Part shown: one piece after another, positions 14,624 to 38,830 of the stretch
Numbering within the stretch: position 1 is the first letter of the stretch
How the letters are laid out: each line of letters begins with the position of its first letter
Sequence record: OZ035764.1
From: Kagunavirus 536P11
Length of the DNA: 44,422 nucleotides
Strand: one strand, 5' to 3'
The notes under the pieces: model-generated
The model's input: the letters and a program-made list of their open reading frames with translations, nothing else
Databases searched by the model: none
What the model was told of the DNA's origin: nothing
Position numbers and translations under genes: made by a program

Positions 14624-14653
14624 TTTAAAACCCTCTATTGTTGGTGTAAGTGA

Positions 14654-14682
14654 ATAGTACGCTATTATATTGGGGTGCGCAA
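14654..14682 (-). promoter_or_regulatory. early promoter with operator (TTGCGC-17-TACTAT, core AATAG-N4-CTATT)
   Basis: minus strand reads CACCCCAATATAATAGCGTACTATTCACTTA, near-identical to 37391-37423. Confidence 0.55.
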
Positions 14683-24906: not shown

Positions 24907-24930
24907 AAGGCCCCAAACGGGGCCTTTTCT
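24907..24930. terminator. bidirectional terminator AAGGCCCC-AAAC-GGGGCCTT-TTTCT
   Basis: between convergent tailspike (+) and minus-strand operon end. Confidence 0.65.
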
Positions 24931-25068
24931 CTACTCTTCCGATAACTTCTCCAGTACAAACGCCAGTTGCGCATTAGCGGCGTCTCTTTGCTGCCGTAGT
25001 CGTAGAACCTCTTCCTCGAGTTCCTTGATACGTTTTTGCAATGCTGGAATTGGGGATATGATGTTCAT
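24931..25068 (-). CDS. hypothetical small coiled-coil protein (45 aa, not in ORF track)
   Basis: start ATG overlaps stop of upstream gene (ATGA coupling); translation MNIISPIPALQKRIKELEEEVLRLRQQRDAANAQLAFVLEKLSEE. Confidence 0.35.
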   Translation of the reverse strand: MNIISPIPALQKRIKELEEEVLRLRQQRDAANAQLAFVLEKLSEE

Positions 25069-25250
25069 TTATTACCTTCGCTTTTCTTAAAACTGCGCTT
25101 TATATCCGGCAGCGTGTAGCATCGCGACTTTTCGTATTTACCGTCCGCGCTTACCAAAACAAAGCTGTTGCCGTCTTTTGATATGTACTCGATGGTGCAA
25201 GTATTGAATGAATGTACACTGTATATTTCATCGCCAACATTAAGTTTCAT
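25065..25250 (-). CDS. hypothetical protein
   Basis: 61 aa ORF with start/stop overlaps on both sides. Confidence 0.4.
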   Translation of the reverse strand: MKLNVGDEIYSVHSFNTCTIEYISKDGNSFVLVSADGKYEKSRCYTLPDIKRSFKKSEGNK

Positions 25251-26671
25251 TTCTTACCTCGTCTCTTCATGTAATTAAGCAATTCTTCCTGGACCGATTT
25301 CTTCTCGTCAGTACGCGCGGCAACAACCTCGTCCAGCGTGTCTTTAGCAACGATGTGGTAAAGGAATACCGGGCGCTCGTGTCCCGCCTGTTTCTGGCGT
25401 ACCGGGCCTATACGCTCAACGACCTGCAAATAGTGCTCAAGGTTCCAGCCTTGTGAAATAAACGCCAGATGATGCCCACCGTCCTGTAAATTGAGGCCGT
25501 GGCCCGCTGACGCCGGATGTACGCATAAGATTTCGATTTCACCGCGGTTCCACGCTTCCATCTGCTTATTGCCCTTAGCACCTTTTGCAAACGCCTGGGC
25601 TTGAGGGAATCGCTTAAGGATACGTTCCAGTTCGTGCTTGAACTGATAGGCGACCAGTAGCGGTGCGCCCTGTAACTCCTCGACAATGGACTCAAGCGCA
25701 TCCAGTTTCGTATCGTGCACTTTCTCCCAGTCTTTGGTTGCTTCTCCGTCCGGCCCCGACACATACACGGCACCAGATGCAATCTGCAAACACTTCGACG
25801 TCTTCGCCGCTGCGTTAGCTGCTTCAACTTCTCCGCTCTCCAGTTCTGCAAATAGCTTCTCCTCCATATCTATGTACGCCTGACGCGCTTTCTTCGGCAG
25901 GTCGATTTCAACCGGTACGATAATCGGCGCTTCGCAACCGAACCACTCGGCAGCGTCAATCGTGAGACTGATGTCCTTCATCCTCTGATGAATCTCATTA
26001 TCCGCGCCCGGGCGTACCCGATACCTTCGCGCCATAGCCGATTTACCTTCCTGCACCGAGTTAAACCACCGGTCGGTGAACGCAGTGTATGAAGAACCGA
26101 GGCGCTCGCCAGCGTCGATAAACCAGTTCTGCCCCCACAAGTCCTTGAGGCCGTTAGGTGACGGCGTACCGGTCAGGTTGATAAAACGCTTAACCTTACC
26201 GAACGCAACTTTACTTAGCGCCTTTGCTCGCTTGCTTCCACCTGAACGGCTGCGGAATGATTTCAGCTTCGTGCTCTCATCGGCAACGATGACCGTAAAA
26301 GGCCAGTCGTCTTTGCCATAGTAGTCAATCAGCCACTCGATAACTTCGTAGTTGGTGCACACCACGTTAGCGTCCGACTCCAGCGCCGCGATGCGGCGCT
26401 TCTCTGAACCGGTTGCATCTACGACACTCAGGCACGGGAAACCCCACTTAGTTTGTTCTGCGGGCCACGTGCCGGACGCAACACGTAACGGGGCTAGGAT
26501 TAACACGCGGTCCTCTTCTGTAAGTTGCCCATTGCGAAACAGGCGGTTGAGTACCCACATCGTTGCGGAACTTTTGCCCGCACCCATCGAAGCCCAAATA
26601 TTACAGCGAGGGTGTTTCAACATGAACGAAGTCATTAGCTTCTGGTATTCACGCCTTTGAAACTTACTCAT
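25247..26671 (-). CDS. SNF2-family / DExx-box helicase
   Basis: Walker A GAGKSS, DEST box, helicase C-terminal-like region. Confidence 0.65.
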   Translation of the reverse strand: MSKFQRREYQKLMTSFMLKHPRCNIWASMGAGKSSATMWVLNRLFRNGQLTEEDRVLILAPLRVASGTWPAEQTKWGFPCLSVVDATGSEKRRIAALESDANVVCTNYEVIEWLIDYYGKDDWPFTVIVADESTKLKSFRSRSGGSKRAKALSKVAFGKVKRFINLTGTPSPNGLKDLWGQNWFIDAGERLGSSYTAFTDRWFNSVQEGKSAMARRYRVRPGADNEIHQRMKDISLTIDAAEWFGCEAPIIVPVEIDLPKKARQAYIDMEEKLFAELESGEVEAANAAAKTSKCLQIASGAVYVSGPDGEATKDWEKVHDTKLDALESIVEELQGAPLLVAYQFKHELERILKRFPQAQAFAKGAKGNKQMEAWNRGEIEILCVHPASAGHGLNLQDGGHHLAFISQGWNLEHYLQVVERIGPVRQKQAGHERPVFLYHIVAKDTLDEVVAARTDEKKSVQEELLNYMKRRGKK

Positions 26672-27617
26672 TTACCACCCCCATGAATGCCTTTATAAAT
26701 TCAGCGGCTACTTGCGGGATGATGGCATTGCCGTAACCGCGCAATCGTCCCACTCTGGCGGGTATCCCATTAGCCAGCGGGAATGTGCCGGGTTCAACTG
26801 GCCTGAATTTCCCATCCCGGCATCCGAGCCAGTCAGCATCTGACCAGAAGCTGTGGTGCGTATTGGCCGCGATATTTTCAGTCCCTGCTCCGTTGAGTAG
26901 TCCAGCCTGTCGAATGTTCTGTCTTTTCCGTCCTTGCGAATAACTGTCTCTCCGCTCCCTCTGTAATCGTTCGCTGTTGGGGTCGGCCATGCCAAAAGGT
27001 ATTGTGCGTGCGTCGCCAGATTGCAATTCGCATTCGGTCTGTTGAAGCGTTTTTCCGCGTAGGCTTGTGGGTCTTTCGCTCTGCTGTTGTTGTCGTCCGC
27101 AACCGCTGGCGTCGGCCAGGTTGTACGCGCCGAAGAACAGTCTGTCGCGTTTGTGCGGGGCACCGACGCTACAAGCTGGGAGTACGGCAAACCCGACGGA
27201 GTAGTCTTCTCCTTCCAGATGAGTTTGTAAATCGCACATCCACGATTTTGCAATTGCTGGTGCAACCTGTTCCCCAAAGAGGACTGGAGGGCGGCACTCG
27301 CTGATGAGGTCGAGGAAGACTGGCGCGAGGTGTCTCGGGTCAAACTGCCCGAGTTGCTTTCCTGCCGCGCTAAACGGTTGGCAAGGCGGGCTTCCCGTCC
27401 AGCAAGGCGTATCTTCCGAAACTCCCGCAAGTCTGAGCGCGAGAGGCCAGCCGCCGATACCAGCGAAAAAATGACACTGGGTGAACCCGTCAAGGTCTTC
27501 TGGCTTAACTTCGGTAATGCTTCTTTCATCTACAACTCCAAAAGGTATGTGACCCTGCTTTATTAATTCACGCAGCCACGCTGCCGCGCTTTTATCCCAT
27601 TCATTGTAGTAATTCAT
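26664..27617 (-). CDS. DNA (cytosine-5)-methyltransferase
   Basis: motif I FFAGIGG and motif IV GSPPCQPFSAAGK (catalytic PCQ). Confidence 0.8.
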   Translation of the reverse strand: MNYYNEWDKSAAAWLRELIKQGHIPFGVVDERSITEVKPEDLDGFTQCHFFAGIGGWPLALRLAGVSEDTPCWTGSPPCQPFSAAGKQLGQFDPRHLAPVFLDLISECRPPVLFGEQVAPAIAKSWMCDLQTHLEGEDYSVGFAVLPACSVGAPHKRDRLFFGAYNLADASGCGRQQQQSERPTSLRGKTLQQTECELQSGDARTIPFGMADPNSERLQRERRDSYSQGRKRQNIRQAGLLNGAGTENIAANTHHSFWSDADWLGCRDGKFRPVEPGTFPLANGIPARVGRLRGYGNAIIPQVAAEFIKAFMGVVNE

Positions 27618-27805
27618 TTCGCCACCAGAACTAACTCTTTACGCCCGAACGCCGTAACGTTACCGGTTACGTCTTCGATAACCAGTTTACCGTTCGACTC
27701 GACGAACACCGTATCAACGGCAACAGGACGACGGGTCTTAACGTTGAAAATCATGTCGCCCGGTACGATGTCACGTGCGGGTTTGCGGTCATATTCGTGT
27801 TTCAT
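27614..27805 (-). CDS. hypothetical protein
   Basis: 63 aa ORF downstream of internal promoter 27839-27867. Confidence 0.4.
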   Translation of the reverse strand: MKHEYDRKPARDIVPGDMIFNVKTRRPVAVDTVFVESNGKLVIEDVTGNVTAFGRKELVLVAK

Positions 27806-27835
27806 TTCTCAATTCCTTATATTGTTGGTGTAGGA

Positions 27836-28120
27836 CTAACTATAATAGTTCGCTATTAGGTCGTCAACCTGTTTAAACGAACCAACGACAAAAACATTTG
27901 CACCACGTTTACGCATCCGCTCATGCTCCCGTAACTGGTGCGGGTCAGGCTTCGTGTTCTCGTCTTTCTTCACCTCGACGAACCAGATGACGCCGCCGGG
28001 GAGAATTATCAGCAGGTCAGGAGCGCCCACTCTATTTTCGTACGACAATTTGCGTACAAGGCCCCCCAGGGCCTCGAATCGGTCTTTTGCGTATTTCTGA
28101 ATCTTGCCTTCCGGGGTCAT
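27836..28120 (-). CDS. VRR-NUC domain nuclease
   Basis: PD-(D/E)XK-like GAPDLL...VEVKK signature; ATG at 28120 (M6 of track ORF) overlaps stop of upstream micro-ORF. Confidence 0.6.
   Translation of the reverse strand: MTPEGKIQKYAKDRFEALGGLVRKLSYENRVGAPDLLIILPGGVIWFVEVKKDENTKPDPHQLREHERMRKRGANVFVVGSFKQVDDLIANYYS
27839..27867 (-). promoter_or_regulatory. early promoter with operator (minus strand TTGACG-17-TATAGT, core AATAG-N4-CTATT)
   Basis: plus strand TATAATAGTTCGCTATTAGG at 27841-27860; lies inside the 3' end of the VRR-NUC ORF. Confidence 0.5.
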
Positions 28121-28269
28121 GACCGCAGAACCCAAGTTATAAACGCCCCGCCGAGAACGGCAACGCCAACAAACTTAAAGAACAGGCCATAACAGAACAT
28201 CGCGGCTATCCCCGCACCGAGTAACAGTGCGAGCATGGTTACTATCGTCCAAAATACAAACATTGTCAT
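28117..28269 (-). CDS. small hydrophobic membrane protein (50 aa, not in ORF track)
   Basis: MTMFVFWTIVTMLALLLGAGIAAMFCYGLFFKFVGVAVLGGAFITWVLRS; ATGA overlaps at both ends. Confidence 0.4.
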   Translation of the reverse strand: MTMFVFWTIVTMLALLLGAGIAAMFCYGLFFKFVGVAVLGGAFITWVLRS

Positions 28270-31588: not shown

Positions 31589-31617
31589 ACTATAATAGCT
31601 AACTATTCAGGTGTCAA
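31589..31617 (-). promoter_or_regulatory. early promoter with operator (minus strand TTGACA-17-TATAGT, core AATAG-N4-CTATT)
   Basis: plus strand TATAATAGCTAACTATTCAG at 31591-31610. Confidence 0.55.
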
Positions 31618-33864: not shown

Positions 33865-33893
33865 AATATAATAGCTAACTATTCACATGTCAA
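33865..33893 (-). promoter_or_regulatory. early promoter with operator (minus strand TTGACA-17-TATATT, core AATAG-N4-CTATT)
   Basis: plus strand TATAATAGCTAACTATTCAC at 33867-33886; divergent from 33913-33930. Confidence 0.6.
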
Positions 33894-37388: not shown

Positions 37389-37421
37389 TTGCACACCCCA
37401 ATATAATAGGATACTATTCAC
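37389..37421 (+). promoter_or_regulatory. early promoter with operator (TTGCAC-17-TACTAT, core AATAG-N4-CTATT)
   Basis: CACCCCAATATAATAGGATACTATTCACTTA, 29/31 identical to the minus-strand promoter at 14651-14682. Confidence 0.6.
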
Positions 37422-38797: not shown

Positions 38798-38830
38798 TTG
38801 CACACTAGGATAGAATAGGCTACTATTCAT
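38798..38830 (+). promoter_or_regulatory. early promoter with operator (TTGCAC-17-TACTAT, core AATAG-N4-CTATT)
   Basis: TTGCAC 38798-38803, TACTAT 38821-38826. Confidence 0.55.

Follow-up and report, generated by a model that had tools for sequence, protein, structure and literature searches.

The C5-cytosine methyltransferase M.EcoHK31I, reportedly described as a heterodimer by Lee, Kam and Shaw in 1995, consists of an alpha polypeptide of about 309 amino acids and a beta polypeptide of about 176 amino acids. In this enzyme from Escherichia coli HK31, the whole of beta is written inside the alpha gene in a different reading frame, alpha contributes motifs I–VIII as well as X, beta contributes motif IX, activity needs both polypeptides, and the first ~42 beta residues are reportedly dispensable for it in vitro (PMC2836561, PMC3404938). 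M.EcoHK31I and M.AquI are the only characterised C5 methyltransferases made of two polypeptides (PMC3404938). Here we analysed the 44,422-nucleotide (nt) sequence of Kagunavirus 536P11 (OZ035764.1; this whole stretch is called the window hereafter), where a methyltransferase open reading frame (ORF) on the minus strand, alpha (26664..27617), holds a second minus-strand ORF, beta (26708..27529), wholly inside it in the +1 frame. By analogy with M.EcoHK31I, we consider it reasonably probable that this region encodes an orphan two-subunit C5 methyltransferase of the same build, with two polypeptides produced in two frames of the same stretch of DNA. Both ORFs are already annotated in databases; the feature of interest is the conserved two-frame gene with an EcoHK31I-type architecture, on which the literature searched yielded no functional or evolutionary study.

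The alpha ORF encodes 317 amino acids and scored 61.2 bits against PF00145 (cut-off 22), with only residues 74–167 in the aligned part, and it matched phrog_363, labelled ‘DNA methyltransferase’, over its full length. The single-chain enzyme M.HhaI aligned with alpha in phmmer across motifs IV–VIII with an expectation value (E) of 7.6e-8, while the score against the NCBIfam dcm model was 37.5 and thus below the cut-off of 100.65. We read the motifs directly from the minus strand and checked each of them by coordinate: motif I is FFAGIGG (27450-27470), motif IV is PPCQPFS (27369-27389), motif VI is GEQV (27264-27275), motif VIII is KRDR (within 27138-27155) and motif X is GNAI (26721-26732). 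All five are invariant across alignments of alpha relatives, and the reading of alpha as a C5-cytosine methyltransferase with its catalytic motifs intact is supported. Unlike M.HhaI, whose catalytic motifs align with those of alpha, the alpha chain has no in-frame motif IX and no conserved target-recognition domain. Codons 166–255 (26853..27122, minus strand) form a spacer at the place where single-chain enzymes hold the target-recognition domain, and a motif IX-like sequence sits in the +1 frame of beta. A further difference from M.HhaI is found near the N-terminus of alpha, where the NEWD of YYNEWD (residues 3–8, 27594-27611) resembles motif II, compared with SNEWDK of M.HhaI. It lies ~45 residues before motif I and not after it, and position 25 of the NCBIfam dcm profile was aligned to alpha residue 3; the order of motifs I and II may be permuted in the alpha family.

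Beta has 273 codons, starts at alpha codon 30 and spans 86% of alpha. It matched phrog_1008, which is likewise labelled ‘DNA methyltransferase’. A preliminary description of this DNA had called one C5 methyltransferase with motifs I and IV in the gene; the enzyme class and both motifs agree with the PF00145 match and the coordinates given above, but the methylase was treated there as a single polypeptide, and the second ORF in the +1 frame had been overlooked. Relatives of beta are abundant: representatives of 50%-identity clusters number over 10,000 at E ≤ 0.001, of which 6,531 reach E ≤ 1e-10. Along the minus strand, beta contains a conserved block, SASAALQSSL...IYKLIWKEKTTPSGLPYSQLVAS (27137-27304), two WPTP modules (27107-27118 and 26978-26989) and the motif IX-like segment GQLNPAHSRWLMGYPPEWD (26747-26803); the peptide TTPSGLPYSQLVASVPR is an example of sequence specific to the beta frame. 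In the AlphaFold2 model, residues 1–73 were disordered and were followed by a helix (76–95) and a confidently predicted beta-hairpin (102–122) with a predicted local distance difference test score (pLDDT) of ~90. The WPTP regions were poorly defined, a short helix was placed at LNPAHSRWLMGYP, and only residues 76–122 and the motif IX helix were confident. The WPTP module is ~35–40 residues long, reads roughly WPTPxxxDxxG...LA, and occurs in 0–8 copies per beta relative (e.g., eight in P0326 and six each in P0264 and P0339).

Beta has its own start signals. An internal ribosome-binding site and start codon, GGAG-ttgtag-ATG (27527..27539, minus strand), lie within the alpha codons F-G-V-V-D-E, and the pattern GGAG-N6-ATG is common to almost all Guernsey-like loci, one of which has GGGG. 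The signal of a distant clade (more than 20 loci) is AGGAG-N8-ATG at alpha codon 36, where Arg-Ser is consistently written with the synonymous choice AGG-AGY and Asp as GAT-G. The conserved Shine-Dalgarno sequence and ATG, together with the open stretch that follows them upstream of any possible shift site, argue for independent initiation over frameshifting.

To estimate selection in the two frames, we used an overlapping-gene test in the style of OLGenie, in which substitutions are classed as non-synonymous (N) or synonymous (S) in each frame and codons are bootstrapped. Alpha was under purifying selection over codons 1–165 (dNN/dSN 0.2–0.5), was neutral over codons 166–255 (0.9–1.03, with intervals that include 1), and was again under purifying selection over codons 256–317 (0.25–0.57), also in the part past the stop codon of beta. 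Beta was unconstrained (~1) over alpha codons 31–100, corresponding to its first ~70 residues, where alpha was under purifying selection, and both frames were under purifying selection over alpha codons 101–150 (~0.6 for beta). Alpha codons 151–165 were ambiguous for beta, with a dNN/dNS of ~1.05 and a dSN/dSS of 0.42. Over alpha codons 166–255 beta was under purifying selection (dNN/dNS 0.65–0.78), and this continued from codon 256 to the beta stop (0.55–0.67). A profile of diversity by codon position was consistent with this pattern. The neutrality of alpha at the position of the recognition domain indicates that alpha has no conserved recognition element.

Selection on the two frames is therefore complementary, and both neutral stretches are kept free of stop codons beyond chance. 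When the beta protein was held fixed, 2–12 stop codons were expected in the alpha spacer and none was found in 46/46 loci, with a median per-locus chance of 0.013; when the alpha protein was held fixed, ~1.4 stops were expected in the N-terminal stretch of beta and none was found in 50/50 loci (median per-locus chance 0.19). The length of the alpha spacer varies from 50 to 236 codons among relatives, tracking the gain and loss of WPTP modules in beta.

The two-frame arrangement is not restricted to this phage. The +1 frame was open for 203–424 codons in all 50 distinct viral loci, with alpha identity down to 42%. Synonymous shuffling with the alpha protein fixed predicted 3–9 stop codons in the beta span against the zero seen, and an open run as long as observed appeared in at most 3% of shuffles per locus, usually in fewer than 0.1%. 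The +2 frame of the same loci contained 9–33 stop codons. When one genome of each bacterial species was scanned, no fewer than 529 stretches proved to code for a relative of beta; their hosts include Gamma-, Beta- and Alphaproteobacteria as well as Desulfovibrio, and among the 77 best proteobacterial loci analysed ~73 had beta in the +1 frame of an ORF with PC, ENV-type and GNA motifs. Altogether, the arrangement is kept in nearly all of the ~125 phage and prophage copies examined.

On two IMG/VR contigs (L022, 599-2045; L023, 2491-3937), an ORF resembling an HNH endonuclease lies in the +1 frame just past the beta stop and inside the alpha gene of a relative, so that three proteins are read from one gene. 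Alpha remains open through the insert (481 amino acids) and regains motif X, which is further evidence that the middle of alpha needs only to be open. In a prophage of E. coli ECCTRSRTH03 (L147, 2863-4032), the NCBI pipeline calls the homologue two pseudogene fragments, ‘missing C-terminus’ and ‘missing N-terminus’, probably because the neutral spacer of alpha breaks the similarity at the protein level. If this is the cause, intact genes of the alpha family are being mis-annotated as broken.

The window in this region is ~90% identical to Kagunavirus K1G, K1H, K1ind1-3 and Ivi (Guernseyvirinae), and 485 phage records match. The same locus in K1G, K1H and K1ind1-3 has both ORFs annotated, as ‘putative C-specific methylase’ and, for the equivalent of beta in the K1G and K1ind GenBank records, ‘putative Mte8-like protein’; RefSeq calls the latter a second ‘DNA methyltransferase’, and a newer record of phage Ivi annotates only alpha and omits beta. 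The origin of the name ‘Mte8-like’ could not be traced in the literature searched, and the searchable literature yielded no statement on the function or selection of the nested phage gene, the records only naming the ORFs. In the related phage vB_Eco_K1B4, both of the genes annotated as methylases are transcribed in the course of infection (PMC12645636).

The likeness to M.EcoHK31I, which has no structure in the PDB, is drawn from its published description and has several aspects. The phage beta also lies wholly inside alpha in another frame, and motifs I, IV, VI, VIII and X are found in the phage alpha too, with a candidate motif IX-like segment in beta. The N-terminal ~40 residues are reported to be dispensable in vitro in the beta of M.EcoHK31I, and the first ~70 residues of the phage beta are unconstrained and predicted to be disordered. 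The phage alpha (317 amino acids, and 309 in K1ind2 and K1ind3) is similar in size to the alpha of M.EcoHK31I. The two systems also differ: the phage gene stands in a phage replication operon with no cognate restriction enzyme among the ORFs scanned (see below), its beta is longer than the beta of M.EcoHK31I, and the conserved, presumably recognition-related sequence is in the phage beta, the corresponding alpha segment being neutral, whereas the literature places recognition in alpha. M.AquI is likewise a C5 methyltransferase of two polypeptides split in the variable region, but its subunits divide sequentially into motifs I–VIII and IX–X (PMC3404938), whereas the phage beta is nested and alpha regains motif X.

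The methyltransferase gene lies among replication genes on the minus strand. First in the minus-strand order, upstream, is a 751-residue ORF resembling family-A DNA polymerases, and related records annotate matching ORFs as DNA polymerase. It is followed by small ORFs, by a VRR-NUC-type nuclease (27836-28135) and by a 63-residue ORF of unknown function (27614..27805; phrog_4879), which is syntenic in Guernseyvirinae-like loci and whose stop codon overlaps the alpha start codon (ATGA). Downstream of alpha and beta are an SNF2-type helicase of 474 residues (25247..26671), a 61-residue ORF (25065-25250) and a 45-residue ORF (24931-25068), the last before a terminator-like hairpin with a T-run (24907..24926). 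Successive start and stop codons of the 63-residue ORF, the methylase, the helicase and the 61- and 45-residue ORFs overlap by 4–8 nt (ATGA or ATGAGTAA), which suggests that 24931-27805 is one translationally coupled operon closing at the hairpin. A scan with Pfam and PHROGs found no match to a restriction-endonuclease family among six ORFs of 25065-28135 (alpha, beta, the 63-residue ORF, the VRR-NUC-type nuclease, the helicase and the 61-residue ORF, leaving out the 45-residue and polymerase-like ORFs). The methylase is thus probably an orphan enzyme with no cognate restriction endonuclease.

In the EcoHK31I-type reading that we prefer, alpha carries the S-adenosylmethionine-binding and catalytic motifs I, IV, VI and VIII and is read on through ~90 unconstrained, stop-free codons to motif X; the alpha frame would have to stay open over the variable region for motif X to be translated. 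Translation of beta would begin in the +1 frame, at alpha codon 30, from a GGAG-N6-ATG of its own, and its dispensable, disordered N-terminus would be followed by the helix-hairpin block, the WPTP modules and the motif IX-like segment. We infer that the two polypeptides would assemble as in M.EcoHK31I, with beta providing the motif IX/small-domain or recognition part that is absent from alpha, probably for target recognition. The enzyme would methylate phage DNA and thereby blunt host restriction; orphan phage methyltransferases generally protect phage DNA from host restriction, and this is the basis of the proposed role. A bolder version, which we put forward only tentatively, is that beta would be the entire target-recognition subunit, made of the helix-hairpin block, 0–8 WPTP modules and motif IX, and that the alpha segment would be just an open, sequence-free tether.

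Several points weigh against the EcoHK31I-type reading. The AlphaFold2 model of alpha, built from an alignment of 36 sequences, had a mean pLDDT of 35 and was unusable, and that of beta had a mean pLDDT of 57 and was mostly of low confidence. A profile of beta had no match among PDB sequences or in Pfam. The only hhalign alignment of this profile to M.HhaI placed GQLNPAHSRWLMGYPPEWD on RKLHPRECARVMGYPDSYK, which is motif IX, as this reading would predict, but with a non-significant E of 0.16; parts of the M.HhaI sequence used for it match the phmmer output. The idea of a canonical enzyme rebuilt via two frameshifts was not supported: a chimera in canonical motif order, with the alpha N-terminus, the beta C-terminus and alpha motif X, gave no longer or better Pfam match, scoring 62.2 bits against PF00145 vs 61.2 bits for alpha alone. 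The selection statistics were calculated from uncorrected distances and from sequence pairs that are not independent. Published accounts place the recognition domain of M.EcoHK31I in alpha and not in beta, and membership of the same family is proposed from the architecture. Finally, the translation of beta and the need of alpha for it are predictions from sequence.

Because beta has no known domain and its predicted structure is mostly of low confidence, the nested ORF might be regarded as a non-coding accident of codon usage. This is scarcely credible: 50 diverged loci have no stop codon over 203–424 codons where 3–9 are expected (per-locus P ≤ 0.03, mostly <0.001), the beta frame is under purifying selection, and beta has matches to over 6,500 cluster representatives at E ≤ 1e-10. 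The selection test and the stop-codon shuffling effectively refute this idea. Beta might instead be a genuine but unrelated overprinted gene, for example one for a DNA-binding or anti-defence factor, and alpha alone a complete methyltransferase. Overlapping genes of such origin are common in viruses, beta has no significant similarity to Pfam or PDB entries, and alpha has motifs I, IV, VI, VIII and X as well as a C-terminal G-I-P...GNAI that superficially resembles motifs IX–X. We nevertheless consider this possibility unlikely, since alpha is neutral at the position of the recognition domain, beta is constrained exactly where alpha is unconstrained, beta is nested in the alpha gene at nearly every locus examined, and M.EcoHK31I provides a precedent for a nested beta that the enzyme cannot do without.

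Another possibility is that programmed +1 ribosomal frameshifting near motif VIII yields the active enzyme as one chain, which would fuse alpha(1–165) to the C-terminal part of beta. A few database proteins are just such in-frame fusions (e.g., P0254 and P0251). Their fusion points differ, however, being near motif I (L015, L029), after motif IV (L133, P0251) or after motif VIII (P0254), and P0254 was traced to one contig of one sample, with a 1-nt deletion relative to K1ind3. The scattered fusion points and this deletion make the fusions look like indels or sequencing errors, and after inspection of their DNA we rejected them as evidence for frameshifting. Moreover, the beta frame is open for ~70 codons ahead of any shift site and has its own Shine-Dalgarno sequence and ATG, and a fusion would drop motif X, yet the alpha C-terminus is under strong purifying selection, including past the beta stop. 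Programmed frameshifting calls for a fixed, conserved shift site and a second frame needed only downstream of it, and this is not what we found; we judge this possibility improbable. The assembled contigs L015, L029, L066 and L133, which come from metagenomes, a sequencing run and a metagenome-derived genome, have alpha and beta joined in one frame by 1-nt indels at varying positions, including one within the T-run of the motif I codons. Errors of sequencing or assembly are the probable cause, and they give rise to misleading ‘fusion’ proteins in databases. A last alternative follows the preliminary description, in which a single-polypeptide methylase and the SNF2 helicase would together form a coupled unit for modification or anti-restriction. 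Its structural remarks stand: the methylase stop shares 8 nt with the helicase start (ATGAGTAA), the downstream gene scored 43.7 bits against the SNF2-related domain PF00176 (cut-off 24.9), and a promoter-like site with a recurring spacer palindrome does lie upstream, at 27839-27867. The genes are co-oriented and their order is conserved in Guernseyvirinae-like loci. The functional coupling, on the other hand, was not supported and is very improbable in our view. Overlaps of 4–8 nt join all five genes, so that the methylase–helicase overlap is generic to the operon. Among 62 viral loci with the methylase, only Guernseyvirinae-like loci have the helicase directly downstream or the order PolA, VRR-NUC, 63-residue ORF, methylase and helicase; the helicase is upstream of the methylase in L014, L016 and L018, and most other methylase loci have no helicase within 2.5 kb. 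In an E. coli O103:H2 prophage an opposite-strand gene stands between the two, and in a lambdoid prophage the methylase comes after gam/bet/exo, in a lambda-type recombination module. Given these variable neighbourhoods, the methylase acts like a mobile accessory gene and looks inserted into a replication module of PolA, VRR-NUC and helicase.

The helicase itself has a Walker A motif GAGKS and a DEST motif, both read directly, and a full-length match within phrog_62, and its Helicase_C score of 20.1 was slightly under the cut-off of 23.5. It appears to belong to the replication module as an independent gene that shares transcription and translational coupling with all its neighbours, and a partnership with the methylase is not supported.

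The promoter-like site (27839..27867, minus strand) reads TTGACG-17-TATAGT, with 10/12 positions of the sigma-70 consensus, and its −10 box overlaps the final codons of the VRR-NUC gene. Promoter-like hexamers were not enriched in the region, with 5 hits vs 4.7 expected from shuffled sequence. The spacer of this site holds the palindrome AATAGCGAACTATT (AATAG-N4-CTATT; 27844-27857, minus strand), a pattern that has 17 matches in the window with up to three mismatches vs 3.6 expected, and that recurs at six or more other promoter-like sites of the window. Sites of the palindrome include 27844-27857, 31594-31607, 33870-33883, 14653-14666, 37405-37418 and 38814-38827. Three minus-strand sites have it as the whole spacer separating TTGAC(A/G) from TATA(G/T)T, and at three others it is just downstream of a TATAAT-like box. 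The palindrome looks like a shared operator or the mark of a family of phage promoters, and the term ‘operator-bearing promoter’, used in the preliminary description for 27839-27867, is a reasonable one for this candidate site.

In this phage the methylase calls for annotation and testing as a pair of genes, and alpha cloned alone may be inactive. Annotation pipelines already call relatives broken pseudogenes or leave out beta. If beta were the entire recognition subunit, the gain and loss of its modules would reprogram or multiply the specificity with the catalytic chain untouched, and textbooks would be mistaken in assigning the recognition domain of EcoHK31I-type enzymes to alpha; at 0.7–1.3 kb, the pair would also rank among the longest same-strand gene overlaps of phages and Proteobacteria, and among the most widespread. 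As a natural case of long dual coding on one strand the locus is a clean one, in which selection alternates between the frames and two segments are held open without sequence constraint. Its spread, over more than 10,000 50%-identity clusters and at least 529 bacterial stretches, makes it well suited to work on the persistence of overlapping genes and on DNA recognition by split methyltransferases.

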